Shown piece by piece: positions 17,787-36,183 of a DNA stretch of 64,000 nucleotides. Source of the stretch: an uncultured Acidobacteriota bacterium (GTDB lineage Bacteria > Acidobacteriota > Terriglobia > UBA7540); contig CAVQYM010000014.1 of the NCBI GenBank assembly GCA_963718175.1, positions 104,283-168,282 on the forward strand, in the 5' to 3' direction. Each line of letters begins with the position of its first letter. Positions within the stretch are counted from its first letter, which is position 1. A program made the position numbers and the translations under genes. The notes under the pieces were generated by a model. That model had not been told where the DNA came from. It saw nothing but the letters and a program-made list of their open reading frames with translations, and made no database searches.

Positions 17787-18863
17787 TCACTTCCGGGTCT
17801 CGTTCAGGAGTTCATCGTAAAGCTGAGTGAAGCCCCCGGTCATCTGCGCGGCACTGAAATGATCGCGAACATGGGCATACCCCGCTGCTCCCATGCTGTG
17901 GCGCATCTCGGGTTTCGGGAGCAGGAGGCGAAGCCTGGAAGCCAAGGCATCGGCATCGCGGGGCGGGACCAGCCAACCCGTTTTTGCATCTTCAATCAGC
18001 TCCGGGACGCCGCCCACCGAGGTGGCGACCACCGGCAAGCCTGCTGCCATGGCATCCAGCGCGGCGATCGGGAAACCCTCCTCGAGGGAAGGCATCACGA
18101 AGACATCCCAGCGAGGAAGAACGGATTTGGGGTCGTCGATCCATCCCAGGAACTCAACATGTCCCTCGAGGCCAGAGTGCGCGACCGCCTCTTCCAGTTT
18201 CCGGCGTTGCGGCCCCGACCCGGCAATCTCCACGCGAAGACCGGGGAATTCGCGCCGCAGCGCGCTTGCCGCGCTGAGCAAGTACTCGATCCCTTTCAGT
18301 TCCACCAGTCGCCCTGCCGTTCCGAGGATGATCTCCGACGTGGTGCGATGGGGAAGGGCAGGAGGGTCGCCAGGGGGGACGGTCACGCCGGCATAAATCA
18401 CCCGCACCGGTCCATCGATGACTCGACTCGCCACCGCTTGAGAGACCGCGACGACTGCATCTGCGTCCCGGGCAGAGAAGTAGACTGGCGTGAGGCCGCG
18501 CGGCTCGAGAATCCGGCCGTGCAGATGCCTGATAATCCTGGCTTGCGTGGCGGCGCGCGCGAGCCGGCAGACAGACCTCCCTCCGAAGTGAAGATGGACG
18601 ATCGCAAATTTCTGGTTGCGCAGGCTGCGCCAGAACCTCCAGGCTCCCACAGGATCTCGCGCCCCGCGCCACCAGTCGAGAGCGCGCGACTGCACGCCAG
18701 CCTGCTCAAGCATGCCTACCAGGGGACCCGCCCCAGCCAGAAACCAGGCATGGATGCGGTATCGTTCGGGATCGAGCCCCTCCGCGAGGACGCGCACAAT
18801 GCGGGCCATACCCGTACCCTCGGGCTGTGCCGTGCCAAGAATATGGAGTACCTGGTGAGCCAT
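17787..18863 (-). CDS. Glycosyltransferase family 4 (GT-B fold)
   Basis: C-terminal GT4 signature PSLEEGFPIAALDAMAAGLPVVATSVGGVPELIED. Confidence 0.85.
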   Translation of the reverse strand: MAHQVLHILGTAQPEGTGMARIVRVLAEGLDPERYRIHAWFLAGAGPLVGMLEQAGVQSRALDWWRGARDPVGAWRFWRSLRNQKFAIVHLHFGGRSVCRLARAATQARIIRHLHGRILEPRGLTPVYFSARDADAVVAVSQAVASRVIDGPVRVIYAGVTVPPGDPPALPHRTTSEIILGTAGRLVELKGIEYLLSAASALRREFPGLRVEIAGSGPQRRKLEEAVAHSGLEGHVEFLGWIDDPKSVLPRWDVFVMPSLEEGFPIAALDAMAAGLPVVATSVGGVPELIEDAKTGWLVPPRDADALASRLRLLLPKPEMRHSMGAAGYAHVRDHFSAAQMTGGFTQLYDELLNETRK

Positions 18864-20562: not shown

Positions 20563-21753
20563 TTACCCCAATCTGAATCCAAAGAGGCTTCGGAAAGATA
20601 CCACGTCTGCTGCTGCCATCAGGGCCGATAGGGCTGCCGCCACCCATAGCACGCGCCGGTCACGCGGGATTCTATCCCGTAGCGAAAACAGGAGAATCGG
20701 CAGAACCGGAATTACAAACCTCGGAAAAAACCGAATGATTCCGCCGTAGTTGTACGAAAGGAAAAAGAGCAGATACAGCGAGGTAAACAAGGCCTCGGGG
20801 TGATAGTCGGCCAAAACCCTGTTCCAACTACGTGGCAACCAGACCGCCACCGCCCCGGCCAGCGCTATGATCAACCATGCTACGAACCAGACCAGCCTCC
20901 ACCAGCGAAGGTCGCCATGAAGACCTGCGAGAAAACCCGGAACCATGGCGCCGAAAGGGTAGGTGATCGGCCATCCATTGGATCCCCAGTCGTCTTTGTA
21001 GGCGATGAAACTGGCGAAAGGAGTGCCCATCACCATCCGTACAGGTATGCAGTAGAGAACTCCCACGGCAAGTCCAACCAGGGTAATCGTTGCCAGTTGC
21101 CGGTAACTCCTTCGCCGAGCCAGGACGGCCGCGAAGCTTACCAGAGCAAACACTCCAACCGGCCGCACTGTTGTGCTCAGCGCGGCCAGCAAGGCGGCCA
21201 GGTTCCACCGGCCGGAGCGTGCCAGCAGAAAAGACGCAAAGAGCAAGCACATAAACAACGGTTCACTTCCCGCTCCCAGCGCGCGTTGAATCCACTCGAA
21301 GTTCACCACGACGAAGGTGGCGGCAACCCAGCCCCCGTACAGTCGGCGCACCAGAACACACACGCCCACCGATGCGAGAAACGATATAATTACCGCCGCC
21401 ATTAATCCGGGAATGGAACACAGCTTGGATAACCCCGCAATGACGTACGGGTACCCCCAGAAGAATTGCGCGGATTCTCCACCAGGAAAGCGCCATTGTC
21501 GAATCGTGTTCGCCACGTCCACATAGAACTGCGCATCGAAATGCGGCGCTGCCAGCGTCTCCCAACCACCTACTTTGTAGATGGTCCCAAGGTATATAGC
21601 TGACTCCATGAAGAGAATCAGGAGGATTTCAAGCAGAGAAGACTCGGCGCGGTCGGGGGCAGTGGCGGCATCGAGCGTGCCGGCGGGCATGACTCGGAAC
21701 CAGGATTTCCATTTGGAGTTCATGAGAACGTATATGAGTCCTTCCTCCGGCAT
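20563..21753 (-). CDS. Multi-pass membrane protein, GT-C-like candidate (paralog family A)
   Basis: 396-aa hydrophobic ORF. Long blocks are shared with 38166-39323 (RLYGGWVAA.F...N..WIQ...GSEPLFMCLL.ASFL.AR..RW..AALLA.LSTTVRP.GVFAL). Confidence 0.7.
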   Translation of the reverse strand: MPEEGLIYVLMNSKWKSWFRVMPAGTLDAATAPDRAESSLLEILLILFMESAIYLGTIYKVGGWETLAAPHFDAQFYVDVANTIRQWRFPGGESAQFFWGYPYVIAGLSKLCSIPGLMAAVIISFLASVGVCVLVRRLYGGWVAATFVVVNFEWIQRALGAGSEPLFMCLLFASFLLARSGRWNLAALLAALSTTVRPVGVFALVSFAAVLARRRSYRQLATITLVGLAVGVLYCIPVRMVMGTPFASFIAYKDDWGSNGWPITYPFGAMVPGFLAGLHGDLRWWRLVWFVAWLIIALAGAVAVWLPRSWNRVLADYHPEALFTSLYLLFFLSYNYGGIIRFFPRFVIPVLPILLFSLRDRIPRDRRVLWVAAALSALMAAADVVSFRSLFGFRLG

Positions 21754-21822: not shown

Positions 21823-22986
21823 TTAATGTAAGAGCATGTGAAACACCGCGCGCACATTCAGAGCACTCATGGCGCTTAATAAGCCGGCAACCACACTCAC
21901 TGGCAAAATAACCCATCCTTTGAGGAGACGCAACCGCAGATCCATGACGCTCTGGGGAATGATGGGTATGGAAAAGCGCGGATACTCTCGATACGCCCAG
22001 GTGGAATTGTAACTAACACAGAATGCCGCGAAGAGGAGGAAGAAAGATGACTCCACCTGTCCAGCGACATCGGCAAATGCTTTGCGCCGGCGTTTCCATA
22101 ATGTTACGAGGCCGAAGATTGTCAGCGCCACGTAAAAACCATTCTTGAGATGGTACGTCCATGGCCACCCACCCGTCAGGGCCTCGCGCAGGAGAGGGTA
22201 AAAGGGCAGCGTAATCGGCGAAGCGCTGTACCAGTCATCAGCGTAACCGTTAACCGGGGCCAAAGGATCTTTTGCGGCAAAGATGATCGGTGTGAGATAC
22301 AGTGCTCCCAGAAAACCAGCCATCAGCGCAGACTTCAGCAGGTCTCGCCATCGGCGGTGCCAGAGGAGAATTGCCCCGAGCGCGACGAGTAGGAATATCC
22401 CGGTCGGACGCGTCCATACCGCCAAAGCCGCACACGTCACGGCGCCCAGGGTATGTTCTTTCCTCCACAGCCATAGGGACGCAAAGAGAAAAACGACAAA
22501 GATCGACTCACAGCCACCCAGGCAAATTCGTTGTGTATAGGCGACATTCATAAAGGCAAAGAGCGTCGCGACTCGCCAACCCCATAGTCGGCCGCAAAAA
22601 TACAGGCCAAGAGCACCGCAGGCCACGGTGAGGAGCGGGAGACATCGCGCCACCGGCAAGGAGGTAAGCTTGGACACGATCGCCACGCAATACCCGGTGC
22701 CGCGGTAAAGATAACGAACGTTTTGCAAATCGGGCCCGGAGAACCGCCCCTCCAGAGTGGCTTGAGCAATGGTGAGATAGCCCGCGTTATCGCCGTGATT
22801 GCGGCTCATGTCCCAGAAGTTGTGAACCCTGGTAACAGCCACAATGAAGGTCACACAACAAAGTACGTAGCTCGTAAAGGCGGTGAGAGCGGATAACTCA
22901 TTCGGACGAAGGTCAGCTCGCGCCAGAGTTGCTCCATTCTGGATCGGACCTTTCGATTCAGGCGCAACATCTGAATTCTGGGGCAT
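21823..22986 (-). CDS. Multi-pass membrane protein, distant member of paralog family A
   Basis: 387-aa hydrophobic ORF with the same block order as family A (GWRVATLFAFMNVAYTQ...ESIFVVFLFASLWLWRK...AVWTRPTGIFLLVALG). Confidence 0.65.
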   Translation of the reverse strand: MPQNSDVAPESKGPIQNGATLARADLRPNELSALTAFTSYVLCCVTFIVAVTRVHNFWDMSRNHGDNAGYLTIAQATLEGRFSGPDLQNVRYLYRGTGYCVAIVSKLTSLPVARCLPLLTVACGALGLYFCGRLWGWRVATLFAFMNVAYTQRICLGGCESIFVVFLFASLWLWRKEHTLGAVTCAALAVWTRPTGIFLLVALGAILLWHRRWRDLLKSALMAGFLGALYLTPIIFAAKDPLAPVNGYADDWYSASPITLPFYPLLREALTGGWPWTYHLKNGFYVALTIFGLVTLWKRRRKAFADVAGQVESSFFLLFAAFCVSYNSTWAYREYPRFSIPIIPQSVMDLRLRLLKGWVILPVSVVAGLLSAMSALNVRAVFHMLLH

Positions 22987-23043: not shown

Positions 23044-24825
23044 TTAGCTATCGGGCCGGATTCCTGGAGCAGCAGCACAACGCTCGACAGTCAGCGGTTC
23101 GTGTACCGGAGGCCGTCCCGGCGTGCGGTAGGCAAGCGAAATAGCACTGCGGTTCGTGTAGACCACGTCTGTACAAGAGAGTGAAATCTCCACGGGCGGC
23201 GCATCGGGTCCTACTGTGAATCGATACAAGGGCCCCCGCCCTCTTAAATCCTCCAATGTGTAAATTACCGGACGCGGAGCATAGTAAGACGGAAGGCGCG
23301 AGTTCACGACGTAGATCACGGCATTCGCGGGCAAAATACGGTTTAGAGCGCGAAAGTCCTCTGTAAACGCGACGAACTTGTGCAGGAAGGAGTCACGGCT
23401 TGTAATCCCCAAATCAACCTTGAGGAAGGGCCTTGCGTAGTAGCCCTGCACGGCCAGCCAGGGAAGACACATCGCGAATAGAACCATCCACCCGTGAGCG
23501 ATGAGGCGCGCTCCGAGGCGGGATGGCCACACTACCCAGGCACCGAGGACCAACACGGCATATTGAAGTCCGCCCAGGAATCGGAATTCGTGCGGCAGCA
23601 GCCAGGCCATGAGAATTGCTTGGCCACAAACGAGTCCGAAAAGGACCTTAAAAACCCGTTCGCGCTTCCAGGCCGTGAAGGCTACGACCCCAAAGGCGGC
23701 GACCACTCCCAGCGAAACAGAGGGAGCCAGCCAGACCAGGAGCGGCATCCAGCCTGTCCGATTTGTGTTCACCGAATCGGCGAGTTCGGCGATAACATCC
23801 GGCCCGAAATAGTGCGAATGAAACATGGACGCAGTGGCAAGGCCAAACGGCGATCCGCACTGCATGGTGGTCCACAGGATGATCGGGCCGTAAAACGCTG
23901 CCCATACACCGCCTGCGATCCCGGCCGCTTTCCTCCAGCCCATACTAGCCGCTGCCCGGTGGACACCGATCAACGTGAACACCGCAGAAAGGGGCAGAAT
24001 TGAGATCTTGGTGGAAGCGGCCGCATAAGCGCTCAGGCAAACGAGGACCAATCTGGTTTGCGCCTTCATCTCACCGGTTAGGCCTTCAGGAAGCAAGGCA
24101 AGAAGAAACGCCGTGACCGTCGCCAGATCTCCGAGGGCGTGCGGCCCACTCGTAACGTGCCAGACAGTGGGGTAAAGGCCAACGGCAGAGATCGCCCCCG
24201 TCATCCATCCGGCCGAGGTGCTGCCGGTCAGGTCCGACGCAACACCGGCGATAAGAAGAACCAGCGCTGCGCCCAGTCCCCAACTGACTACGTTTCCGGC
24301 TTCGGGAAATCCAACCGCATGGGCGGCACTGAGCCCCAACTGAAAGCCACACTGCGGGAAGATTGCTGCTTCATAGGGTTCACGATAGAGATATAGCCTA
24401 CCATCTTCCATGACGCGTTTGGGTACCAACATGTGGTAATGCAGTTCGTCAATTTTGGTGGAGGGCGCGACCGCGATCAAAAGGTTGACTGTGACCACCG
24501 CAGTGATCACGGCCATGAACCACCAGTCAGCACGGCGCGTTGTCCTCAGGCCAGGAGCAAAGGCCAGCCTCTTCGTAAGGCCGAATAGACCGCAGCAGCC
24601 AATCACTGTCGCCCCGACGCCGACCAGTTTCACCGCGCCGACCCCTCCCCCCAAGAACAGGACCAGCATCACGGCCAGATCGATGATAGCCACACCACTT
24701 ATGAGGGATGTTGGGAGGCGCCAGCGATGGGGAACCGATCCCAGGAGATGCGTAGCGCCCAGGCCTATGCCGCCGGCGGCGATCAGGCCGAGCAGGCCCC
24801 CGACTAAGGTCTTAACCGACTCCAT
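23044..24825 (-). CDS. Large multi-pass membrane protein, GT-C-like candidate
   Basis: 593-aa ORF that is hydrophobic nearly throughout. Acidic loop motif STKIDELHYHMLVPKR and a ~120-aa C-terminal soluble domain. First gene of the minus-strand gene set. Confidence 0.65.
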   Translation of the reverse strand: MESVKTLVGGLLGLIAAGGIGLGATHLLGSVPHRWRLPTSLISGVAIIDLAVMLVLFLGGGVGAVKLVGVGATVIGCCGLFGLTKRLAFAPGLRTTRRADWWFMAVITAVVTVNLLIAVAPSTKIDELHYHMLVPKRVMEDGRLYLYREPYEAAIFPQCGFQLGLSAAHAVGFPEAGNVVSWGLGAALVLLIAGVASDLTGSTSAGWMTGAISAVGLYPTVWHVTSGPHALGDLATVTAFLLALLPEGLTGEMKAQTRLVLVCLSAYAAASTKISILPLSAVFTLIGVHRAAASMGWRKAAGIAGGVWAAFYGPIILWTTMQCGSPFGLATASMFHSHYFGPDVIAELADSVNTNRTGWMPLLVWLAPSVSLGVVAAFGVVAFTAWKRERVFKVLFGLVCGQAILMAWLLPHEFRFLGGLQYAVLVLGAWVVWPSRLGARLIAHGWMVLFAMCLPWLAVQGYYARPFLKVDLGITSRDSFLHKFVAFTEDFRALNRILPANAVIYVVNSRLPSYYAPRPVIYTLEDLRGRGPLYRFTVGPDAPPVEISLSCTDVVYTNRSAISLAYRTPGRPPVHEPLTVERCAAAPGIRPDS

Positions 24826-25667
24826 GAAATCGTCCCTTCCTCCAGAAAGGCTGGAGCCCGAGGCACGTGCTCCTCAGAACGACCTGCTTGCACTCAAAGC
24901 GAAGGGAGGGGAACCATCGCGAATGGAAAAATGGACCCCTCGTTCGCCCTTCAGCCGAGCTCCGATCCCTAGGAAACCTCCCGGGAATTGGAAGAGCGCC
25001 GGCTTCATGTGGGAACAGGCAAATCGCGTGCTTCATCTGCCTCGCCGAATGAGTATAGACCAAGGCAACCCAAAGTTCGAGCCGCGGAGGCCCGGGAGGT
25101 GCGCGACATAGAAGTTGGGGATTTCTCTTGAGCTCTCATGGCGGTCCCTGCGCGGGGTACGTCAGGCGTGATGCGAGACAGGCGCTGGCGGAGGAAGTAC
25201 CGCGGGCGTCTCGCCCACCGTGGCATGGAGGTCCCGCGCATGTGCCAGCATGGCCAGGCCGGCCCCGCCCGCGAGTTTGTACATTTTGAAGCGCGGAATT
25301 CGTTCCCCAGCGCGCGAATAGTGGCAAAAAGGCTGTCAGTTCCCGTCAAATACGTGCGATTTTGTGTAAATGACGTGTCATTTTGCAGAAAATGTCCGTT
25401 TCTTGGTCGGGCAACTTGTCATCTTTTTGTTTGTTTTCATATACATAACGGCTTCGTTCGTATAAAAAAAGAATTCTTTTTCTTAGAACCCTCGCGGGCC
25501 ACCATGCAACCTCCCCTGCGTCGGATAAATTGTCTCGAGTTTTCCGCGTCGGTCTGGGCATTTATCCTTTCCTCCAGGTGACCCGGTGGGGCTGCCGCGT
25601 TCCCCACCCGTCCCTACCACTAGGCTAAACCAGCGCCCAGGTGAGTCGTCAAGTGAAATCTGGGCGG

Positions 25668-25727
25668 TTTTCCTACCGGTAGGAAAAAATCTTAACCATG
25701 AAGCGCATTTTTCCTGCCGGTAGGAAA
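25668..25727. promoter_or_regulatory. Pair of palindromic candidate operator sites (TTCCTNCCGGTAGGAA)
   Basis: Perfect 20-bp palindrome TTTTCCTACCGGTAGGAAAA at 25668-25687. A one-mismatch copy TTTTTCCTGCCGGTAGGAAA lies at 25708-25727, with centres 41 bp apart. Confidence 0.45.
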
Positions 25728-25812
25728 CCCGGCGTTGCGGCCTCGCGATATTCACCTCCCTTGGCGTCCTCTCACCCCGGCCGGCGCCGCGGGAAGAGTG
25801 CAGAATCTCCAG

Positions 25813-25887
25813 GGCGTGGCCAGGATGGCCACGCTAGGGGGCGGGAGCGGGACGCTCCCTTGACCGCGGGCAGGACGCCCGCGCTAC
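25813..25887. repeat. REP-like cluster of three GC-rich hairpins, the outer two ending in GCTA(C)
   Basis: GGCGTGGCCAGGATGGCCACGCTA, GGGAGCGGGACGCTCCC, GCGGGCAGGACGCCCGCGCTAC. Same hairpin-plus-GTAGCG/GCTAC module as the elements at 45304, 61204 and 62655. Confidence 0.5.
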
Positions 25888-25978
25888 AAGTCTTTGCCCT
25901 GGTCAGCAGGAGAGGCACAACCTCCAACTTCTATGTCGCGCACCCAGGCCCGGGAAATTTGGATTAACGTTCCTTCTG

Positions 25979-26007
25979 TTGACGGGAGGAGTGGCCTTCG
26001 GCAGAAT
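25979..26007 (+). promoter_or_regulatory. Candidate sigma70-type promoter of the plus-strand gene set
   Basis: TTGACG (25979-25984), a 17-nt spacer, then CAGAAT (26002-26007), about 110 nt upstream of the 26115 ATG. Confidence 0.3.
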
Positions 26008-26114
26008 AGGCCATGAGCCCAAAAGCCTGGCTTCAGCCAAAGTCTCGGCTGGAGGGGGTGCGCGCAACAGGGGCCTGCCGAGGATGCAAATTTGCGTCCC
26101 CTCCGTGGTTGACT

Positions 26115-26876
26115 ATGAAACCCAAAGACCTCCTGAAAGCCGTGCTCCCTTCTCCCGCTCGCCACTGGCTAAGGAATCAGCAACGGCGCGTCGAGCGTGT
26201 ACGGCGTGGCGTGCGGAGCGACGCCGACCTGGGCAGCTTGCGCCAGATCACTCCCGTCAACGCCGCCGATTATGGAGCGAGTCGCGGACAATGTATTGAC
26301 CGCCACTACATTGAAAACTTCCTGGCTGCGCACGCGGTCGACGTGCAAGGGCACGTGCTGGAATTCTCTGATGACTCCTATGCGCGCAAATTCGGCGGCA
26401 CCAAAGTGACGCAGAGGGATGTGCTGCACCTCACGGCAGATAACCCACGCGCAACCATGGTGGCCGACTTGGCCGAGGGCGACCCGATCCCTTCTGATAC
26501 CTTTGATTGCATTCTGTGCACGCAGGTTCTCCAGTATGTTTACGACCTTCACGCCGCGGTTCGAACGCTCTACCGCATATTGAAACCCGGCGGCGTGGTG
26601 CTGGTTACGGCGCCCGGCATCCAGAAGATCGACCGCGTCGACATGGAAAAGCACGGAGAATTCTGGCGTTTCACCGACCTCTGTCTGCGCCGGCTGTTCG
26701 AGGAAGTCTTCCCCAAGGGGCAGGTTGATGTCCGGGCTTACGGGAATGTATTGGCAGCCATCGCGTTTCTGCACGGGTTTGCTGTCGAGGACCTCCGGCG
26801 CAAGGACCTGGAATATTGCGACCCGGATTTTGAGGTTACGATCTCCCTGCGCGCAGCGAAGCCGAAGGCGGTTTAG
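26115..26876 (+). CDS. Class I SAM-dependent methyltransferase
   Basis: Methyltransf_11/23-like blocks (VLEFSDDSY, FDCILCTQVLQYVYDLHAAVRTLYRILKPGGVVLVTAP). Start at MKPKDLL (26115); the longer ORF from 26013 lacks support. Confidence 0.8.
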   Translation: MKPKDLLKAVLPSPARHWLRNQQRRVERVRRGVRSDADLGSLRQITPVNAADYGASRGQCIDRHYIENFLAAHAVDVQGHVLEFSDDSYARKFGGTKVTQRDVLHLTADNPRATMVADLAEGDPIPSDTFDCILCTQVLQYVYDLHAAVRTLYRILKPGGVVLVTAPGIQKIDRVDMEKHGEFWRFTDLCLRRLFEEVFPKGQVDVRAYGNVLAAIAFLHGFAVEDLRRKDLEYCDPDFEVTISLRAAKPKAV

Positions 26877-26882
26877 GTTTCC

Positions 26883-29234
26883 ATGAACACCAACCATCAT
26901 GGCCTGCCCCGGCGCGAACCCGATAACTCGCCGAAAGCTCAGCCGTTGGCGCTTGATTCACCGGGAAGTGCAGATCGTGAACTTCCGGACAGACTCGGGT
27001 CTGACGAGCGCGTCCGCCTGATGCGCGACGGCATGCTCAATAACGTTAGTCTACTCATTTCAGGCCTCATCGGTATTGTTCTCGTTCCGATCATGCTGAA
27101 GGGCTTGGGGGTTGAGTCTTACGGCCTGTGGATTGCCGCCCTCTCCCTGGCGGGAACTGTCGGACTCTTCGATTTCGGCCTGGGCATGAGCGTGACGCGT
27201 GAGGTAGCCGCGTCGCTCAACCGCGGGCAGGGGAATGAAACGGCGCCCTTTGTGAAGGCGGCTGGGACTGTTTTTTTCTTAGTCGGGGCCGTGGGCGGCA
27301 TGCTCATCGCTACCCTCGGCCTTCCCCTCAGCAGCGGTTTGCACCTCTCCGCGGCTAATCGCCAGATCGCACCGGCGGTGTTTGCGCTGGCCGGAGCCTC
27401 GTTCCTTGCAGATCGCCTCCTGGCCTTCACCACCGCGGTGCTCCGCGGGTTGCGGCGATTCGATATCACGAATTTGCTTGCGATCATAGCAGCTCTATTC
27501 CGTGCGATCGGAATCATTGCGCTCATCAAGGTCGGAACCGGGTTAGAGGGCGTGCTGATGTGGCAAGTGGTGGCTACCGCCGCGCCCGCCTTGGCCGGCC
27601 AGTGGGTGCTCGGTAATCTCGAAGGGAAATTCCGTTTCCGTCTGGGACGAATCGACTGGAACGTGGTGGGCGCTCACCTGCCATTTGGTTTAGCGAGTCA
27701 GCTCACCACCATTGTCGAGGTAATGATCTGGGATATGGTGCCGTTGGTGGTTGGTTTAGTCCTTGGTTCCCGCTGGATTGCGCCGTATTACATTGCCCAA
27801 CGATTCCCGACCTCAGTGGGTCCGGTTATATGGTCCATTGCCGAGGCGCTGTTTCCCGCGGTGAGCCAGCACCAAAGGGATCAGGAAATGGCCCGCACAC
27901 GGGAAATCCTCGAAGTCGGGACGCGATGGATTGTCGTCGTTGCCCTCCCTCTCTGCCTGGGATTGTGGATCGTTGCCCCAAAACTATTGCAGGCGTGGGT
28001 CGGAAACGTGCCGCCGGGTTCGACTCTGATCCTGCGTCTGATTACTGCGGCAGTGTTTGTGGAGGGGGTTGCGGCAGCCTCCATCCAGGTGCTCTGGGGG
28101 CGGGGAGCTTTGCGAACCATGGTGATCATCCCCTGTTGCCTGATGGTGACGAGCCTGGCGCTCACGCTGGTGCTCTTGCCCCGCATCGGCATTGTCGGGG
28201 CTGCTTGGGGGCTGGTTGTGCCGATGTTCCTCGCGGCTTTCGTGTATCTTCATATCGGCGCACGCACCTGCGGGATTCGCGTGGCGGACCTGATCTCCAC
28301 ATCTTTTCGCGGTTTACTTCTGCCGGTTCTGGCATTTCTGGCGCTGGGTTTCAGTATCAACTCTTTGACAGGCCCAGGATGGACGAGTGTAGTGGCAGCA
28401 CTCCTGGGAGGGGGGATAGGATACCTGATCAGCTTCATTCTTTCTGGAGCGCGCGAGGAAGAGTTAACGCTGGTCCGCAAGTTGACCGAGGTACCTCGCG
28501 CTGAGGCGTACCACTCGTACAGGCGGTTACGCCGTTTACTGGCTCGCATTGGGTTCCTCCGCAGTGGGTACTACCTGCTCCTGGCGGTTCGAGACGCCGT
28601 GAAGGATAGCCCAGCCCACGGCCAGGCTGAACTGAACCATGAGTTCGAGCCCCGCGAGGATCCGTGGGATTATGCTTCGGTCTCATACCAGGGAGATCGA
28701 ATCCGCAGCGAGGTGGCCGCGCTCGATTCTGTTCGCGGGGCAGCACGCTTCGGGAGGGCGTTGGAGGTGGGTTGTGCAGAAGGGATGTTCACTGAAATGC
28801 TTGCTCCGCGGTGCGAGTCCTTGCTCGCCGTGGACATATCATCCGTCGCCTTGACTCGAGCCCGCAGGCGACTCCAAGGGGATGAGCGCGTTCACTTTGC
28901 GGAGTGGGATCTTCGCGTCGATCCCGTAACTGACACCTATGATCTCATCGTCATGATCCATGCGTTGGAGTACATCCGTAATCCTCTTTATGTTCGCAGA
29001 GCGCGTTCCAAGTTAGTGAATAGTCTCCTCCCAGGGGGCTATTTTCTGGTGGGGACCATGAAGGTGGCGGAAATATATGAGGACGCCTGGTGGGGCCGGT
29101 ATTTCCTCCGCAGCGGCAAGAGAATCAACAATTTTTTCAGCGGCCACCCGGCACTGAAGGTGGTATGGACCGCGGAATTCTATTTGGGGAAAGACTTCGT
29201 TTCCTACGACGTTCTTCTTCAGAAGAAGGGTTGA
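26883..29234 (+). CDS. Wzx/MOP-type polysaccharide flippase fused to a C-terminal NodS-like SAM methyltransferase
   Basis: The N-terminal ~520 aa is multi-helix flippase-like (NNVSLLISGLIGIVLVPIMLKGLGVESYGLWIAALSL...). The C-terminal ~200 aa carries EDPWDY (28659-28667), LEVGCAEGMFTEMLAPRC (from 28761), YDLIVMIHALEYI and LPGGYFLVGT, which match the NodS pattern by eye. Confidence 0.8.
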   Translation: MNTNHHGLPRREPDNSPKAQPLALDSPGSADRELPDRLGSDERVRLMRDGMLNNVSLLISGLIGIVLVPIMLKGLGVESYGLWIAALSLAGTVGLFDFGLGMSVTREVAASLNRGQGNETAPFVKAAGTVFFLVGAVGGMLIATLGLPLSSGLHLSAANRQIAPAVFALAGASFLADRLLAFTTAVLRGLRRFDITNLLAIIAALFRAIGIIALIKVGTGLEGVLMWQVVATAAPALAGQWVLGNLEGKFRFRLGRIDWNVVGAHLPFGLASQLTTIVEVMIWDMVPLVVGLVLGSRWIAPYYIAQRFPTSVGPVIWSIAEALFPAVSQHQRDQEMARTREILEVGTRWIVVVALPLCLGLWIVAPKLLQAWVGNVPPGSTLILRLITAAVFVEGVAAASIQVLWGRGALRTMVIIPCCLMVTSLALTLVLLPRIGIVGAAWGLVVPMFLAAFVYLHIGARTCGIRVADLISTSFRGLLLPVLAFLALGFSINSLTGPGWTSVVAALLGGGIGYLISFILSGAREEELTLVRKLTEVPRAEAYHSYRRLRRLLARIGFLRSGYYLLLAVRDAVKDSPAHGQAELNHEFEPREDPWDYASVSYQGDRIRSEVAALDSVRGAARFGRALEVGCAEGMFTEMLAPRCESLLAVDISSVALTRARRRLQGDERVHFAEWDLRVDPVTDTYDLIVMIHALEYIRNPLYVRRARSKLVNSLLPGGYFLVGTMKVAEIYEDAWWGRYFLRSGKRINNFFSGHPALKVVWTAEFYLGKDFVSYDVLLQKKG

Positions 29235-29247
29235 TGGAATCCTGATT

Positions 29248-31032
29248 TTGACCAACTCCTTGAAATTGTCCATTGTCATGCCGACTCGCAACCGCAGGGA
29301 TGTTCTCGTGCGAAGAACCCTGCCTGCCATCTTCGAGCAGGACTTTCCGCCGGATGAGTATGAAGTGGTCGTGATCGTGGATGGCTCGACGGACGGCACC
29401 CTTGAGGCGCTGCGGGGCTTGAAGTCCAAATGCGCGCTCCAAATCCTCGAGCAGCCCGGCCGTGGACCGAGCGTGGCTCGCAACGTCGGCGTGGCTGCGG
29501 CAAGGGGCGAAGTGGTGGTGTTCCTTGATGACGATATTATTTGTGCTCCCGACCTCCTCAGACAGCATGTTGAGGCGCACGTCGACCCCCAACCCACCGT
29601 GGCCTATGGGAGGATTTCTCTGGCTCCCGGAACACCCGACTCGCTCCTCAAATGTGCCTACGAGACCTGGGGAGAGAATTACTATCGCACCCTTGATTCG
29701 CAAGGCGGACTGATGTGGCCGAAGGATGATTACATGATCAGCAATACCTCCGTGCCGCGCGCCACGATGCTTGCCTGTGGGGGATTTGACGAGACCATGC
29801 CGGCGAAGGAGGATTACGAACTAGGGTATCGCTTGTGGATGATGGGAATACGATTTCGGTACCTGCCCAAGATCGCGGCCTACGAGTTCCTCGTAAAAAC
29901 CTCGCGACAATTTGTGTTTAACGACGGCAAAATTTACGGCCGGACGGAAGTGTTGCTATGCCGGAAGCATCCCGACTATCGCCCGTATTCGGAGCTTGCG
30001 CACTTGGGGAAGATCTCGGGTTGGACGCGCCTCCGGCGGCGGATGATCGCGCAATTTCCCGTTTCGCTCGCCCCCCTTGTGGCCGTGCCCCTCTTGGTGT
30101 GTGAGCGGCTGTCCCGGTTCCGCGGAATGAAAAAGGCCGGCTTGCGTTTGTTAGGTACCGGGCGCGGAATTGTAGAGCTCCGCACCGAGGTTCACGAAGT
30201 GGGCTCATGGAAAGCGCTACAAACTGAATTCGGCATGCGTCTGCCGGTACTCCTCTATCACCACGTCGGTCCCTTACGTCCCCGAACCGTCCCCGGGCTG
30301 ACCGTTTCTCCCGAGCGATTCGAGCGCCATGTGTGCTGGCTGGCTCGCCGCGGCTATACCGGGATCTGCCCTGCGCATTGGGTCCGCTGGCGTCGTGAGG
30401 GAAAGGGTCTTCCGGACAAGCCTGTGCTGTTGACCTTTGATGACGGCTATGCGGATTTAGCCGAATACGCCTTGCCCGTGCTGCGCCGCTACGGCTTTGG
30501 CGCGGCTGTGTACATTGTCACCGGACAACTGGGCGGGACGAACGCGTGGGATGAGGCGCGGGGTTCCGGTACTCTCCACCTCATGAGCGCCGAACAGATT
30601 CGGTATTGGGCCAGGCAGGGAATCGAATTCGGCTCCCACAGCCGGACGCATGCGGACTTGACGACTCTCTCAGGAAATGACCTGTCAGAAGAAGTCGTCG
30701 GCAGTGGGGAGGATCTCGAGGCTATCTTAGGGTCGCGGGTGGTTTCCTTCGCCTATCCCTATGGGTTCCACAATCAGGCGGTGGACGATTGCGTTCGGAG
30801 CGCTTACGATCTGGCCTTCATCGCCGACGACGATAATGAGGGCATGAATCATTTGCAGACCGACCCCCACCTTTTGTTGCGCACCATGGTCCAAACCGAC
30901 GACTCTCTTGTTGCCCTGGAGTGTCGCGCGCGATGGGGCCGCAACCCCTTTCTTAACCTGCGGGCCCGAGTTGGCTTGCGTTCCCGCCTCAAACGCGCGG
31001 CGAGCACGGTCTTGGGTCGCGACAAATGGTGA
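29248..31032 (+). CDS. Bifunctional GT2 glycosyltransferase / NodB-homology (CE4) polysaccharide deacetylase fusion
   Basis: TTG start. GT2 motifs LSIVMPTRNRRD, VDGSTDGT, VVFLDDD. CE4 motifs TFDDGY (30433-30447), HSRTH (30637-30651), FAYPYG. Confidence 0.85.
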   Translation: MTNSLKLSIVMPTRNRRDVLVRRTLPAIFEQDFPPDEYEVVVIVDGSTDGTLEALRGLKSKCALQILEQPGRGPSVARNVGVAAARGEVVVFLDDDIICAPDLLRQHVEAHVDPQPTVAYGRISLAPGTPDSLLKCAYETWGENYYRTLDSQGGLMWPKDDYMISNTSVPRATMLACGGFDETMPAKEDYELGYRLWMMGIRFRYLPKIAAYEFLVKTSRQFVFNDGKIYGRTEVLLCRKHPDYRPYSELAHLGKISGWTRLRRRMIAQFPVSLAPLVAVPLLVCERLSRFRGMKKAGLRLLGTGRGIVELRTEVHEVGSWKALQTEFGMRLPVLLYHHVGPLRPRTVPGLTVSPERFERHVCWLARRGYTGICPAHWVRWRREGKGLPDKPVLLTFDDGYADLAEYALPVLRRYGFGAAVYIVTGQLGGTNAWDEARGSGTLHLMSAEQIRYWARQGIEFGSHSRTHADLTTLSGNDLSEEVVGSGEDLEAILGSRVVSFAYPYGFHNQAVDDCVRSAYDLAFIADDDNEGMNHLQTDPHLLLRTMVQTDDSLVALECRARWGRNPFLNLRARVGLRSRLKRAASTVLGRDKW

Positions 31033-31036
31033 TCCC

Positions 31037-32833
31037 ATGGAGAGCATGACCGCGCCCTTAAAGCTCTCGGTCGTGATGTCAACTTACAACCGCCGGGACG
31101 TTTTGGTCTCACAAACTCTGCCCGCTATCTTCAACCAGGACTTACCGGCAGATGCATATGAAGTGATTGTAATTGTCGATGGGTCGACCGACGGTACGGC
31201 TGCGGCGCTCCGCGAGCTTTGCCCGCCCTGTGCATTACGCATCATCGAGCAGCCGAATCGCGGCCTCAGTGCCGCACGGAATACCGCCATCGGCTTGGCG
31301 CGGAGCGGCCTGGTGATCTTCATTGACGACGATATCATCTGTAACCCTGACGTCTTCAGACGGCACGTGGAGGCACACGCGGACCAGGATCCTGTCGTAA
31401 TGCACGGCTCCCTCTTTCTCGCCCCCGGGGCTCCTGCCTCGATTCTCGCGTATGCCAACGAATCCTGGTACCGGAAATATAATTCCCGCCTCGATGTGCA
31501 AGGTGGGCTGAAATGGCCGGACGCGACATTCCTGATTGGCAATAGTTCGATGCCCCGTTCTACCCTTCTCGCTTGCGGTGGTCTCGACGAGGACCTGCTG
31601 GCGAAGGATGATTTCGAATTGGGCCTGCGCTTGTGGAAGATGGGGGTCCGATTTCAGTACCTCCCGGGCGCCGTGGCCTATGAGCTTTCGGTAAAAACCC
31701 CCCGCGCCTTCCTGTTTAACGACGGGGAAGCATTCGGACGGAGTGAGGTGATGCTTTGCCGTAAGCACCCCGACTACCGGCCGCGTTCGGATTTGCTGGC
31801 GGGGTTGGGGAGGACGGCGGGGTGGAAGCATCTCCCACGCCGGGTGGTCCTTCAGTCCCCGGTTTCCCCTGCCCATCTTCTTACGCCGCCGATTTGGGTG
31901 TGCGAGAAGCTGTGCCGGCTCCCGCTCATGCAGAAGGCGGGCCTGCGTTTCCTGGAAATCGGGCGTCGCATGACGGAGTTCCGCGCCGCCCTCAAGGAAG
32001 CCGGCTCGTGGGAAAAATTCGATCGCGAATTCGCGATGCGCTTGCCCGTCCTGCTCTATCACCATGTGGGTCCTTTACGCCCCGGAACCATCCCTGGTTT
32101 GACCGTTTCTCCTGAGCGGTTCGAGCGCCATGTACGCTGGCTCGCTCGTCGGGGGTACACCGGCATCTGTCCCTCCGATTGGGTCCGCTGGCGCCGCGAG
32201 GGGAAGGGCCTTCCCATTAAGCCTGTGCTGTTGACCTTCGATGACGGCTACGCGGATTTGGTCGAATATGCCTTGCCCGTGCTCCGCCGCTACGGCTTTG
32301 GCGCGGCAGTGTACATGGTCACCGGACAACTGGGCGGGACGAACGCATGGGACGAGGCGCGTGGTTCCGGAACCCTCCACCTTATGACGGCGGACCAGAT
32401 TCGATTTTGGGCCACGCAGGGAATCGAATTCGGCGCCCACAGCCGGACACACGCGGATTTGACGACTCTTTCGGCAAGCGAGTTGTCAGAAGAAGTCGTT
32501 GGCAGCGGGAAGGATCTCGAGTCTATCTTAGCGGCGAGGGTGGTTTCTTTCGCCTATCCTTATGGATTCCACAACCCGGCGGTGGACGATTGCGTTCGAA
32601 GAGTTTTTGATTTGGCCTTTCTCGCGGGCGACGAGGCCGAAGGGCTGAATCATCTTTTGACCGACCCCGCCCTGATGCGTCGGACCCTGGTCCACCCCAA
32701 CGATTCATTGCTGGATTTGGAGCTACGCGCGCGCTGGGGTCGCAACCCCATCCTGGACTTGCGTGCCCGACTTTGCCTGCGTTCGCGCTTCAAACGCGCG
32801 GTTCGCTTCATCTTTGGCCGCGGCAAAGCGTGA
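31037..32833 (+). CDS. Bifunctional GT2 / NodB-homology deacetylase fusion, tandem paralog
   Basis: ATG at 31037, 4 nt after the stop of the upstream paralog. Same architecture: LSVVMSTYNRRD, VIFIDDD, TFDDGY at 32234-32248, HSRTH. Confidence 0.85.
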   Translation: MESMTAPLKLSVVMSTYNRRDVLVSQTLPAIFNQDLPADAYEVIVIVDGSTDGTAAALRELCPPCALRIIEQPNRGLSAARNTAIGLARSGLVIFIDDDIICNPDVFRRHVEAHADQDPVVMHGSLFLAPGAPASILAYANESWYRKYNSRLDVQGGLKWPDATFLIGNSSMPRSTLLACGGLDEDLLAKDDFELGLRLWKMGVRFQYLPGAVAYELSVKTPRAFLFNDGEAFGRSEVMLCRKHPDYRPRSDLLAGLGRTAGWKHLPRRVVLQSPVSPAHLLTPPIWVCEKLCRLPLMQKAGLRFLEIGRRMTEFRAALKEAGSWEKFDREFAMRLPVLLYHHVGPLRPGTIPGLTVSPERFERHVRWLARRGYTGICPSDWVRWRREGKGLPIKPVLLTFDDGYADLVEYALPVLRRYGFGAAVYMVTGQLGGTNAWDEARGSGTLHLMTADQIRFWATQGIEFGAHSRTHADLTTLSASELSEEVVGSGKDLESILAARVVSFAYPYGFHNPAVDDCVRRVFDLAFLAGDEAEGLNHLLTDPALMRRTLVHPNDSLLDLELRARWGRNPILDLRARLCLRSRFKRAVRFIFGRGKA

Positions 32834-32947
32834 TCGATTCAAAACATGGTACGCTTGAACGCCAGGAGTCCCCCGATCCGGGAAGGAAAGCATAATGATC
32901 CACGCAAGGATGACCCCCAAGCCTCGCCGACTTTGGAGCCCCAAGTG

Positions 32948-34522
32948 ATGACGCGCCCAGAACCATCCAGCCTCCCCACCTCTTCCCGAGTTTTCGACAC
33001 CCCGACCCTTCTTTTCCTAATCGCTGCCTTCGTTTTTCTCTACACGTTTCTCTTCGTCCCGCCCTTCATTCCCATTTCATACAATGGGGACGGTATGTTT
33101 TTCTTACCTGCGGGCCAGCGGATGTACGAAGGGGAAATGATCTATCGCGACTTCTTTGAATTTGTCACTCCCGGCACGGCTCTTGTCTATCTCCTTCTGT
33201 TCAAGCTTTTCGGACTTAGGCCCTGGATTCCCAACCTGTTGTCCCTCCTCTTGGGGCTGGCTTTGGCCGGGCTCGGTGTAGTGATTGCGAAAAAAATGAT
33301 GCGCGCCAGCCTTACGTTCTTGCCGAGCGCGATCTTCCTGGTTGCGGCGCGCGAATTTCTATGCGAGCCCACGCATCACTGGTTCAGTCTTTTGGCCACA
33401 ACCGCTGCCATCGCCCCGTTGCTTGACCGGCGAACTCCGGCGCGGATCGCCGCCGCAGGTTTCTTCTGCGGCCTTACGTCGTGCTTTACCCAAACCCGCG
33501 GGGTGGCTGTCGTCGTGGGTTTTGGGGTCTTTTTATGGTGGGAATCCCGACGCCGGCAAGAGGCTGGGCGCGAATTGCTCAAGAAAGAAGGTTGGCTGGT
33601 TACGAGTTTCCTTGCCACCTTAATAGCGGTGAATGCTTATTTTATTTGGAAGGCGGGGCCGGCTCGCTTTCTGTGGTGTACGGTCGTCTATGTTCTCAAG
33701 TATTACCCCAAAATGGCGGATGTAGCCACCTTCCGGGTCTTTTGGTATAACTTCCCCGGGTTCGTTCCGCTGGGTAGATTCCTTCACTGGTTCCTTGCGG
33801 ATTGGGTTTTTCTGCACGCGATTATTCCACTTGTATTCATTCTGTTCTTTGCTCGTTACCGGCGGGACTCAGGCAAGGAATCGGTGGAGTTTTGGCAGCG
33901 CCCGATGTTGGTGGCGATGGTGGGCGCATTTTTGCTGCTCAGCATCGCACCTTCCCCCGCCTCGATCCGGATCGCTGCAAGCGCCCTGCCAGGAACCATA
34001 CTCCTTGCTTGGCTCATCGATTCCCCACGCAAGCTCGCTCGGACCCTTGCCGCGGCAATTGCCATTGTAGTCCTGCTCTTAGCCCTCCACGCGGTGGTGA
34101 GGAAACGACCCATCCCCAACTGGAACCTCACGACGCCTCAAGGCAAACTGGCTATCACCGAACTAAGCGACTACGAGGAATATACTTGGGTTCAGCAGCA
34201 CACCCGGCCATCGGAGTATTTCTTTGAGGCGGTTGGTTCCGATATGTACTTTCGCCTGGACCTCCGCAACCCCACACCCGTGCCGTACATAACCAACTGT
34301 GGTTTCACGACAACGGGGCAGGTGGCGGAGGTGATTCAGGGCCTGGAAAAACACAAGGTGCGTTACCTACTCTGGGAACATACCGACCTGGATGCAGTCC
34401 CCGATTGGGAGGATCCTTCTGACGCGCATCTCGGCCCAATTTTTGACTATATTCATAGCCACTACCAGGCTGTAAAGGTGTTCACGAACGCTGATGAGAT
34501 TTGGGAAAGGAAAGGCAGTTAG
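32948..34522 (+). CDS. GT-C-like membrane glycosyltransferase candidate (paralog family B, ArnT/PMT_2-like)
   Basis: Multi-helix N-terminal domain with loop motif YNGDGMFFLPAGQRMYEGEMIYRDFFEFVTPG. C-terminal soluble domain ends in ...YIHSHYQAVKVFTNADEIWERKG. ATG at 32948 preferred over the upstream start at 32846. Confidence 0.7.
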   Translation: MTRPEPSSLPTSSRVFDTPTLLFLIAAFVFLYTFLFVPPFIPISYNGDGMFFLPAGQRMYEGEMIYRDFFEFVTPGTALVYLLLFKLFGLRPWIPNLLSLLLGLALAGLGVVIAKKMMRASLTFLPSAIFLVAAREFLCEPTHHWFSLLATTAAIAPLLDRRTPARIAAAGFFCGLTSCFTQTRGVAVVVGFGVFLWWESRRRQEAGRELLKKEGWLVTSFLATLIAVNAYFIWKAGPARFLWCTVVYVLKYYPKMADVATFRVFWYNFPGFVPLGRFLHWFLADWVFLHAIIPLVFILFFARYRRDSGKESVEFWQRPMLVAMVGAFLLLSIAPSPASIRIAASALPGTILLAWLIDSPRKLARTLAAAIAIVVLLLALHAVVRKRPIPNWNLTTPQGKLAITELSDYEEYTWVQQHTRPSEYFFEAVGSDMYFRLDLRNPTPVPYITNCGFTTTGQVAEVIQGLEKHKVRYLLWEHTDLDAVPDWEDPSDAHLGPIFDYIHSHYQAVKVFTNADEIWERKGS

Positions 34523-34540
34523 TTGCAAAAGGTACAGGCA

Positions 34541-36112: not shown

Positions 36113-36183
36113 ATTGATTTCTCCCCTCCTCATGGAAAAATCGGGACATTGCGTGGGCACAGGGACACATTATTTCACACGGG

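Follow-up and report, generated by a model that had tools for sequence, protein, structure and literature searches.

NodS, the sole characterized member of its methyltransferase family, N-methylates chitooligosaccharides that have been deacetylated by NodB (PMC11681206). The Arn system deploys the GT2 enzyme ArnC, the NodB-family deformylase ArnD, a flippase, and the GT-C enzyme ArnT (PMC12690121), and a MATE/MOP-family flippase has been proposed in a three-component GT-C system, that of Citrobacter undP-Ribf with its GT136 GT-C (PMC11127046). In the Caulobacter holdfast pathway, the HfsH deacetylase acts ahead of the HfsF flippase (bioRxiv 10.1101/523142). Here we describe a 64,000-nucleotide stretch of DNA from an uncultured Terriglobia (Acidobacteriota) bacterium, referred to below as the window, in which a single ORF joins a predicted MOP-superfamily flippase to a NodS-like SAM-dependent methyltransferase. 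This fusion occupies the second position in a compact operon, in the order methyltransferase, flippase-methyltransferase, two GT2-NodB genes, and two GT-C genes. The features of the locus are as follows:

18921 to 20483, reverse strand: PMT_2-like GT-C membrane protein, encoded in an operon that lies upstream and runs divergently (PMT_2 at 23.9 bits, under the gathering score of 26.1); a paralogue of the protein encoded at 43523 to 45193
26013 to 26876, forward strand: generic class I methyltransferase (Methyltransf_11/23; Pfam), with its probable start at 26115 (L001 gene call)
26883 to 29234, forward strand: fusion ORF of predicted MOP-superfamily flippase and NodS-like SAM methyltransferase, 783 aa in a single stop-free frame
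27045 to 28448, forward strand: predicted flippase domain, aa 55-522, with 14 TM helices, N-in/C-in (AF2, Foldseek, Pfam, K/R count)
28449 to 28682, forward strand: conserved helical connector, aa 523-600 (alignment of 41 fused proteins)
28683 to 29231, forward strand: NodS-like class I SAM-dependent methyltransferase domain, aa 601-783, predicted to be cytoplasmic (Pfam, PDB, Foldseek)
29248 to 31032, forward strand: GT2-NodB (Glycos_transf_2 + Polysacc_deac_1), copy a (Pfam, NCBIfam)
31046 to 32833, forward strand: GT2-NodB of the same composition, copy b, a paralogue of copy a (Pfam, NCBIfam)
32948 to 34522, forward strand: predicted GT-C fold glycosyltransferase U558, of a family without a Pfam model (AF2 and Foldseek)
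34523 to 36112, forward strand: predicted GT-C paralogue, 58% identical to U558 (sequence comparison)
36698 to 38359, reverse strand: PTPS_related polytopic membrane protein (Pfam PF10131, 31 bits), which we take to be GT-C-like
39523 to 41274, forward strand: third predicted GT-C paralogue of the U558 family, 36-37% identical (sequence comparison)
41547 to 43499 and 43523 to 45193, reverse strand: two PMT_2-type GT-C membrane glycosyltransferases (Pfam)

The likeness to NodS (Bradyrhizobium/Azorhizobium; 3OFJ/3OFK) lies in the SAM motifs and in the partnership with a NodB-type deacetylase and a GT2 enzyme. However, NodS is only about 24-35% identical to the fusion domain and has neither the flippase nor the 78-aa connector, whereas the fusion locus is missing NodA, a NodC-type synthase, and the nod context; further, the substrate of NodS is a soluble chito-oligomer, whereas that of the fusion is probably lipid-linked. 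With the Wzx/MurJ flippases (PST/MVF families), the fusion shares Polysacc_synt membership, 14 TM helices, N-in/C-in topology, and the fold (TM 0.72-0.78), but the catalytic C-terminal domain is confined to the fusion and Wzy/Wzz/Wza partners were not recognized in the window. The logic of the Arn pathway is apparently shared, as are its enzyme superfamilies. It starts with a GT2 enzyme that produces an N-acylated amino sugar on a lipid carrier; a NodB-fold enzyme acting on the cytoplasmic side then exposes the amine, and the product is flipped and transferred by a GT-C. The differences are that GT2 and NodB form one polypeptide here, that the flippase is MOP-type rather than the SMR-type ArnE/F, that an extra predicted N-methylation is built into the flippase, and that the GT2 sequence is not of the ArnC kind. 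The three-component systems (GtrA/B/C, CsbB/GtcA/YfhO, and Citrobacter undP-Ribf) likewise combine a cytoplasmic lipid-sugar synthase, a flippase, and a GT-C. We know of none that deacetylates and methylates the lipid-linked donor or fuses a tailoring enzyme to the flippase. Finally, the Caulobacter HfsG/HfsH/HfsF set presents a GT2, a cytoplasmic NodB-type deacetylase, and a Wzx-like flippase in the same order, but as separate proteins, without a methyltransferase, and in a Wzy-dependent pathway with the HfsABD export apparatus.

The fusion that the earlier note on this DNA had read from one ORF is real, and it is conserved across dozens of lineages. An NCBI/ENA contig 835,555 bp long carries the exact protein, and an independent Logan assembly (ERR10755942) differs from the window ORF by one nucleotide (R348Q). 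Full-length fused homologues range in identity from 78% to about 30%; they make up about 38 representatives among the best 150 clusters at 50% identity, and an intact single-ORF fusion occurs in 17 species genomes, mostly Terriglobia (Terriglobia, Acidobacteriaceae, Terracidiphilus, Binataceae, and "Proteobacteria" MAGs). The possibility that two genes have been merged by errors in sequencing or assembly, or by a frameshift or stop that went unnoticed in the linker, could be raised because the gene is broken into overlapping ORFs in three related loci (L009, L027, and L035), and because flippase and methyltransferase are separate adjacent genes in four others (L028-L030 and L065). However, these split cases come from error-prone MAG assemblies and break within the flippase domain, never at the junction, whereas the sequence and length of the connector are conserved at 33-78% identity. 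Together with the uninterrupted frame, the independent assembly, and the fused homologues, this makes an artefact next to negligible as an explanation, and we ruled it out as the source of the fusion. The earlier note also knew of no described fusion of this kind, and none was found in the searchable literature; our searches on flippase-methyltransferase fusions, on NodS with polysaccharide deacetylases outside rhizobia, and on N-methylglucosamine in bacterial polysaccharides returned nothing relevant.

The N-terminal domain is supported by both profile and structure as a MOP-superfamily flippase, predicted to translocate lipid-linked sugars. It matches Polysacc_synt (PF01943) over aa 52-329 with 39.4 bits against a gathering threshold of 28.2, with a further weak MurJ match over aa 270-500 (Pfam), and its closest folds in the PDB include MurJ (TMt 0.72-0.77) and WzxE (0.78). 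The NCBIfam WZX_like O-unit flippase subfamily aligns with only 52 residues (aa 58-109) and scores 32.8 bits against a threshold of 300. Topology was read from the helices of the AlphaFold2 (AF2) model together with the K/R count, in place of an ambiguous crude Kyte-Doolittle count. This yields 14 TM helices; the inside loops together with the N-terminal tail contain 20 K/R, the outside loops none, which places the C-terminus in the cytoplasm, as had been anticipated. The connector comprises helices at 525-553, 557-574 (amphipathic), and 577-588. Across the 41 fused proteins it has only six insertion columns, with a column conservation of 0.4-0.7, and it is also seen at the N-terminus of stand-alone methyltransferase homologues, which align from aa ~520-545. 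The connector may be pictured as a rigid element that carries the methyltransferase on the cytoplasmic C-terminus of the flippase. The model of the entire ORF has a mean pLDDT of 83.4 and a pTM of 0.62, the latter leaving it uncertain how the two domains are oriented to each other.

The methyltransferase domain is NodS-like, though without the status of a NodS orthologue. NodS (PF05401; aa 584-727) is its top Pfam match at 74.1 bits against a gathering threshold of 24, ahead of Methyltransf_12 (54 bits) and Methyltransf_25/11/23. Sequence matches in the PDB are led by NodS (3ofj; E=4.8e-17), followed by the sugar N-methyltransferases CalS10, GenN, and DesVI, and Foldseek recovers NodS (3ofk) with a TM-score on the target of 0.84-0.87. 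The likeness to NodS noted earlier by eye thus held, whereas orthology did not: the NCBIfam NodS equivalog model (NF041650) gives 80.6 bits against a cutoff of 300, and the substrate specificity of NodS is hence not transferable to this domain. The SAM-binding motif LEVGCAEG starts at nucleotide 28761 (L627), where it had been placed, but EDPWDY spans aa 592-597 (28656-28673), the range of 28659-28667 previously given for it covering only DPW. E628, G630, and G634 are invariant and D651 and D676 are at least 90% conserved, so that the glycine motif and acidic residues of a class I Rossmann fold are intact, and the domain is predicted to be active, a view that forms part of the account we consider probable overall. 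In a neighbor-joining tree of the methyltransferase cores, constructed without support values, fused and stand-alone forms are interleaved.

Among the close relatives, fused, split, methyltransferase-deleted, and flippase-deleted versions are all seen, with either half lost cleanly. Such natural one-half deletion variants indicate that physical coupling is dispensable for function; the tethering of the last tailoring step to the exporter, suggested in the earlier note, therefore fails as a requirement, since these relatives keep single halves only. Three unfused relatives (P0017, P0021, and P0027) were considered as ancestral orthologues and rejected on the evidence of locus L002, which retains an out-of-frame 40-bp relic 95% identical to window positions 29037-29076, implying that the methyltransferase domain was deleted. 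A flippase-NodB protein (P0042), in which the flippase and an "SGYxLLLA" connector relic are joined to the GT2-NodB gene that follows, at its residue 322, was likewise rejected as an independent "designed" fusion, being an in-frame deletion product in a decayed locus.

The surrounding genes provide the context for the activity of the fusion. The upstream methyltransferase ends 7 nucleotides before the fusion ORF and retains this position in most related Terriglobia loci. NodB enzymes do lie immediately downstream, as noted earlier, though not as plain NodB proteins: both are GT2-NodB fusions. In copy a, the GT2 domain scores 195 bits against the NCBIfam EPS_EpsD-like model, as opposed to 18 for ArnC, 25 for GtrB, and 31 for DPMS, and the deacetylase domain is PgaB-, IcaB-, and HfsH-like with the motifs TFDDG, HSRTH, and YPYG present. 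The sole hydrophobic helix in the GT2-NodB proteins is a stretch in copy a (aa 267-285; KD 2.01), which lies inside the EpsD-like GT2 profile and whose counterpart in copy b lacks hydrophobicity. Downstream membrane proteins of the kind annotated as "hypothetical" are, according to a modeled structure, GT-C glycosyltransferases. U558 was modeled with a pLDDT of 87.2 and a pTM of 0.88, its Foldseek matches include DPY19, STT3, ArnT, PglB, ALG9, and AftA, and its homologues are labeled hypothetical in every annotation. This family is often represented by three to four paralogues per locus, and the window holds about seven predicted GT-C glycosyltransferases in all. The PTPS_related protein is kept beside the module in related loci. 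Promoter and terminator scans of positions 24700-36400 were at chance level.

A broader view of the coupling with deacetylases comes from 80 loci that were chosen by the methyltransferase motif [LF]E[VI]GC[AS]EGxF alone. A NodB homologue is found within 5 kb in 60 of the 80, no more than 500 bp away or in the same ORF in 47, and in the same polypeptide as the NodS-like domain in eight (GT2+NodS+NodB and similar); a flippase lies within 5 kb in 32. Single polypeptides of the types GT2+NodS+NodB, NodS+NodB+GT2, and NodS+NodB (Pfam) are distributed across Acidobacteria gp6, Thermoleophilia, Thermoanaerobaculia, Acidimicrobiia, and Bacillota, and Clavibacter has a PIG-L deacetylase+NodS fusion (Pfam). 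The GT2+NodS+NodB-type proteins are devoid of TM helices, which places deacetylase and methyltransferase together in the cytoplasm. A periplasmic NodB domain, with which N-methylation in the cytoplasm could not take place, was ruled out on these grounds and from the position of the hydrophobic stretch of copy a within the GT2 profile. This linkage and the topology lend support that is indirect, though strong on the comparative side, to the sequence of deacetylation, N-methylation, and flipping put forward in the earlier note, while the methylation of an amine and not of a hydroxyl, the kind of sugar, the lipid carrier (Und-P-monosaccharide or Und-PP-oligosaccharide), and the final acceptor are what we infer.

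Taken together, the explanation that we favor as probable is that the ORF encodes a bifunctional inner-membrane protein acting in a five-step pathway. The GT2 domain would add an N-acetyl-hexosamine to a polyprenyl-phosphate-linked acceptor at the cytoplasmic face, and the fused NodB domain would take off the acetyl group. The NodS-like domain would then N-methylate the exposed amine at the entrance to the flippase, which would carry the modified lipid-linked sugar across to the periplasmic side, where the GT-C enzymes of the cluster would transfer it to an envelope acceptor. This chain of addition, deacetylation, N-methylation, flipping, and transfer to the envelope, taken as a whole, is somewhat better than an even bet. 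The pathway looks nearer to the Arn-like or three-component type than to the classical Wzx/Wzy O-antigen route.

One alternative accepts the fusion but assigns the methyltransferase a substrate other than a deacetylated amine: it might O-methylate a sugar hydroxyl, for instance to mark a chain end or license export in the manner of the WbdD cap, or its target might be the head group of a lipid or some other substrate close to the membrane. The failure at the NodS equivalog cutoff is compatible with this, as are the ready interchange of N-, O-, and C-methylation among class I methyltransferase folds and the Foldseek matches to phosphatidylethanolamine N-methyltransferase, TehB, ChlM, and DhpI (TMt 0.6-0.74). 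Moreover, a second methyltransferase is encoded upstream, to which the methylation of the amine could instead belong, and a relative without the NodS domain still keeps its NodB domains. Yet NodS ranks first by profile, sequence, and fold, and the frequent adjacency or fusion to de-N-acetylases whose folds, NodB and PIG-L, are unrelated is hard to account for unless the freed amine is the substrate; we therefore regard this alternative as unlikely.

The other two alternatives concern the fate of the sugar. The same chemistry could serve a classical Wzx/Wzy heteropolysaccharide (EPS or O-antigen), in which an Und-PP-linked GlcN(Me) repeat unit is flipped, polymerized, and exported. This is possible, though we think it doubtful: the Polysacc_synt membership of the flippase, a GT2 whose closest matches are the EPS glycosyltransferase EpsD and HfsG-like proteins, the presence of a GT4 gene (17787-18863), the HfsH/HfsF precedent, and three polytopic paralogues that could be Wzy-like (m387, m396, and p385, one with a weak match to a "cell surface glycopolymer formation protein") all speak for it. 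However, a priming phosphoglycosyltransferase was not found, and Wzy, Wzz/PCP, and Wza/OPX were not recognized, among the ORFs screened with Pfam and NCBIfam across 0.5-63 kb; further, the GT-C enzymes are the conserved partners across loci, and the minimal loci (L013, L018, and L020) hold only methyltransferases, GT2-NodB genes, and four GT-C paralogues. Because no priming phosphoglycosyltransferase was detected in the window, the Und-PP version stands as a proposal only, and so does the Und-P-monosaccharide version, because the GT2 is far closer to EpsD-like enzymes than to ArnC, GtrB, or DPMS. A more radical departure would be a MATE-like transporter that exports a soluble N-methylated chito-oligomer, similar to Nod factors and built by GT2, NodB, and NodS, which would serve as a secreted signal rather than an envelope glycan. 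Here, the parallel of the triad with NodC/NodB/NodS and the MATE transporters among the fold matches are outweighed by a GT2 that scores 20.8 bits on the NodC model against a cutoff of 550 and lacks the membrane domain of a processive synthase, by the absence of NodA from the locus, by the higher Foldseek scores of MurJ and WzxE, and by the co-conserved GT-C enzymes, which require lipid-linked donors. Such an exporter is thus very improbable.

Returning to the pathway of N-methylation, flipping, and GT-C transfer, its wider reading can be offered only tentatively. This envisions an undescribed "tailor-at-the-gate" pathway, widespread in soil and peat Acidobacteria, wherein GT2-NodB would make a polyprenyl-phosphate-linked hexosamine, the flippase-mounted NodS-like domain would N-methylate it on entry into the transporter, and the new, Pfam-less family of GT-Cs would attach a cationic N-methyl-amino sugar to envelope glycans, lipid A, or proteins. 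It would amount to an Arn-like charge modification with built-in channelling or proofreading and with rapid modular gain and loss, the last being suggested by the clean deletion of either half in sister lineages.

Acidobacteriota rank among the most abundant soil bacteria and, to our knowledge, their envelope glycans are almost uncharacterized. The locus predicts a testable chemistry, namely an N-methylated hexosamine at the cell surface, and the fused, split, and deleted variants offer a natural test of whether a flippase that carries the last cytoplasmic tailoring enzyme gains channelling or quality control by it. For a large family of "hypothetical" membrane proteins, the analysis predicts a GT-C fold and points to a probable function. 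Should the product be a cationic sugar decoration, it may influence the acid tolerance of peat and soil bacteria, their resistance to cationic antimicrobials, and their phage receptors. More generally, the domain fusions indicate that the NodC/NodB/NodS enzyme triad extends far past the rhizobial Nod factors, to at least seven phyla.

The gene at 26883-29234 on the forward strand is a single uninterrupted ORF of 783 codons, as the earlier note had claimed, and its product is a member of both Pfam families proposed for it, namely Polysacc_synt (PF01943; aa 52-329, 39.4 bits against a GA cutoff of 28.2) and NodS (PF05401; aa 584-727, 74.1 bits against a GA cutoff of 24), the latter outranking Methyltransf_12, 25, 11, and 23. 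The Pfam MurJ profile also weakly matches aa 270-500. Of the methyltransferase motifs cited in that note, LEVGCAEG does start at nt 28761, and EDPWDY is present but spans nt 28656-28673, a little more than the 28659-28667 quoted. Among PDB sequences, the C-terminal 233 aa match NodS best (E=4.8e-17); next, with E-values from 1e-5 to 1e-3, are the amino-sugar N-methyltransferases CalS10, GenN, and DesVI and generic methyltransferases. An AlphaFold2 model with 41 fused homologues as input (mean pLDDT 83.4, pTM 0.62) contains 14 long helices in aa 55-522, connector helices at 525-553, 557-574, and 577-588, and a Rossmann-type alpha/beta domain at aa 601-781. In Foldseek searches, its top PDB match is NodS (3ofk/3ofj, TM-score on target 0.84-0.87), after which come MurJ (0.72-0.77) and WzxE (0.78). 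The assignment to NodS thus stands as the top profile, sequence, and fold match but not at the level of the NCBIfam NodS equivalog, the cutoff of which is missed (80.6 versus 300), as is that of NCBIfam WZX_like (32.8 versus 300). On these scores the methyltransferase should be named NodS-like rather than NodS.

By the modeled helix boundaries, 20 Lys/Arg residues fall in the N-terminal tail and the seven inside loops and none in the seven outside loops; the C-terminal tail has 39. Because of the 14 helices and this inside bias, the methyltransferase domain is predicted to be cytoplasmic, where SAM is available, in line with the C-terminal orientation expected earlier.

The fusion is real and old. 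An identical protein is found on an 835,555-bp NCBI/ENA contig, and in an independent Logan assembly (run ERR10755942) the gene differs at one nucleotide (R348Q). A homologous protein search recovered about 60 full-length fused homologues (750-795 aa) at 78% to 34% identity, and when the representatives of 50%-identity clusters were searched exhaustively, 308 clusters matched at E<1e-30, with 38 full-length fused proteins among the best 150. In species-representative genomes, 17 loci have an intact single-ORF fusion, mostly in MAGs of Terriglobia, Acidobacteriaceae, or Terracidiphilus; further hosts are Binataceae and two "Proteobacteria" MAGs, and in a Nitrospirota MAG the gene is split. Of the SAM-binding residues, E628, G630, and G634 are invariant and D651 and D676 at least 90% conserved. 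Across 41 fused proteins, the connector (aa 523-600) has a column conservation of 0.4-0.7, equal to that of the catalytic domains, and only 6 insertion columns, which argues for a connector of set geometry and against a flexible linker. A literature search found no paper on this architecture or module, in keeping with the suggestion that such a fusion had not been described. Homologues already bear the automated annotation [quoted passage not shown].

Both fused and separate orthologues exist, and either half can be deleted. In a syntenic relative (L002-L004), the flippase is 86% identical and the protein ends at 559 aa. DNA alignment reveals two deletions, equivalent to window positions 28502-29036 and 29077-29244 (11629-11673 in L002-L004), between which a 40-bp relic survives, read out of frame and with 95% identity to window 29037-29076; thus, the methyltransferase domain was lost in this lineage, in which the upstream methyltransferase is duplicated. 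At L014, a clean deletion equivalent to 26866-28446 (9960-10000 in L014) has removed the entire TM domain, leaving a stand-alone methyltransferase that starts inside the connector; elsewhere in this MAG, at L031, the fusion is present. In P0042, a homologous protein from L085, an in-frame deletion removes the methyltransferase and the downstream GT2, so that the flippase is joined directly to the NodB domain of the next gene. Sister lineages therefore show three distinct clean deletions, which suggests that loci of this family readily recombine and lose segments. Fused and stand-alone methyltransferase cores also interleave in a rough NJ tree. Furthermore, two metagenome proteins of about 800 aa (P0090 and P0095), 43-45% identical and of the same flippase clade, end in an FkbM-type methyltransferase (Methyltransf_21), indicating that this flippase captured tailoring enzymes more than once. 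Taken together, the deletions, the tree, and the FkbM capture show that covalent coupling, though favored, is not essential and that the loci turn over quickly.

The fusion lies in a co-directional, tightly packed operon (gaps of 7-114 nt), the genes of which and their notable neighbors are as follows.

26013-26876, forward: generic class I methyltransferase, first gene, upstream of the fusion
29248-31032 and 31046-32833, forward: two paralogous GT2 + Polysacc_deac_1 (NodB) fusion genes, downstream of the fusion
32948-34522 and 34523-36112, forward: two paralogous polytopic "hypothetical" proteins, operon end
39523-41274, forward: third paralogue of that pair, by sequence
45402-47585, reverse: sulfatase/EptA-like protein, 727 aa, four N-terminal TM helices, phosphoethanolamine-transferase or LtaS-like architecture
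20563-21753 (reverse), 21823-22986 (reverse), and 38166-39323 (forward): three polytopic paralogues, 385-396 aa, 7-9 TM helices, no family assignment
23044-24825, reverse: polytopic membrane protein, 593 aa, no family match

The NodB domains anticipated downstream are indeed there, with the TFDDG, HSxxH, and YPYG motifs retained, but each is joined to a GT2 in one gene. The hypothetical proteins at 32948-36112 have no Pfam or NCBIfam match, and every homologue is unnamed. An AlphaFold2 model (pLDDT 87.2, pTM 0.88) matches the GT-C enzymes DPY19, STT3, ArnT, PglB, ALG9, and AftA in Foldseek searches; these proteins and their paralogue at 39523-41274 are thus predicted to be GT-C glycosyltransferases that end in an alpha/beta domain. 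The family reaches four tandem copies in related loci (L013, L018, L020). The 18-50 kb region further encodes three PMT_2-type proteins (one under the Pfam threshold), one PTPS_related membrane protein, and one GT4. The sulfatase/EptA-like gene adjoins the GT-C genes, and its product is a further candidate envelope-modifying enzyme. The 385-396-aa paralogues recur next to the module in related loci and might act as Wzy-like polymerases or ligases; one of them weakly matches the model named "AZOBR_p60025 cell surface glycopolymer formation protein". The window ORFs screened contained no detected phosphoglycosyltransferase, Wzz/PCP, or OPX domain.

The 593-aa protein is encoded divergently, directly upstream of the operon, and is kept at that position in the related loci L002-L004, L006, L014, and L025. 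A 1.2-kb intergenic stretch richer in AT (24826-26012) separates the divergent operons; within it, at ~25670-25730, lies a near-repeat, cctaccggtaggaaaa ... cctgccggtaggaaac, to which a regulator may bind. Elsewhere in the window, 15020-16648 (forward) encodes a radical-SAM protein with a hemerythrin (HHE) domain fused at its C-terminus, and 51628-53676 (reverse) a bacterial homologue of angiotensin-converting enzyme that is full-length and matches the Peptidase_M2 profile from end to end (761 bits). An 827-nt inverted repeat with 91% complementarity (53752-54578 and 61296-62122) has one 272-aa GDSL-lipase ORF in each arm and, in the 6.7 kb between them, genes for a class-V aminotransferase, a GHMP kinase, and a VWA protein; this may be an invertible or a duplicated segment.

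With regard to the role of the methyltransferase, we drew 80 loci from species genomes by its peptide pattern alone and searched their six-frame ORFs with the window's proteins. A NodB-domain homologue lies in the same ORF or within 500 bp in 47 of the 80 and within 5 kb in 60; a flippase lies within 5 kb in 32, and in 19 it shares one open frame with the methyltransferase (17 being intact fusions). In eight loci, methyltransferase and NodB domain occupy one ORF. By Pfam, such polypeptides include GT2+NodS+Polysacc_deac_1 (L071 of Acidobacteria gp6; L064 and L074 of Thermoleophilia), NodS+deacetylase+GT2 (L083, Thermoanaerobaculia), and NodS+deacetylase (L066, Acidimicrobiia; L075, Bacillota); GT2+NodS (L036) and, in Clavibacter, PIG-L de-N-acetylase+NodS are also seen. 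The multidomain NodS/deacetylase polypeptides have no TM segments, which places the deacetylase on the same membrane side as the GT2 and the methyltransferase. NodS, the sole characterized family member, N-methylates the amine unmasked by NodB (PMC11681206), and members of the NodS-like family recur beside, or fused to, de-N-acetylases with two distinct folds. It is mainly this chemistry and recurrent linkage that argue for NodB deacetylation probably being followed by N-methylation by the NodS-like domain.

In the scheme we propose, GT2 would add a HexNAc to a polyprenyl-phosphate-linked acceptor, the GT2-fused NodB domain would deacetylate it, and the flippase-borne NodS-like domain would N-methylate the freed amine on the cytoplasmic side, at the mouth of the transporter; the MOP flippase would then translocate the product, and the GT-C enzymes would transfer it to an envelope acceptor. 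The same logic is seen in the ArnC/ArnD/ArnEF/ArnT pathway (PMC12690121) and in three-component systems, one with a proposed MATE/MOP-family flippase (PMC11127046), whereas HfsH, which acts ahead of the HfsF flippase, offers a Wzx-pathway precedent (bioRxiv 10.1101/523142). As to the carrier, the evidence points two ways. The GT2 domain resembles EpsD (195 bits) far more than ArnC, GtrB, or DPMS (18-31 bits), and this favors an Und-PP-oligosaccharide, as for a Wzx-type carrier. On the other hand, it is GT-C enzymes that are conserved as partners, and the ORFs screened included no priming enzyme, which favors an Und-P-monosaccharide, as in an Arn-like or three-component donor. We rate the system as a form of glycan assembly that depends on a flippase and includes cytoplasmic tailoring, arranged in the manner of an Arn-like or three-component pathway. 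Under the proposed scheme, N-methyl-hexosamine would be present in acidobacterial envelopes, which is a testable prediction.
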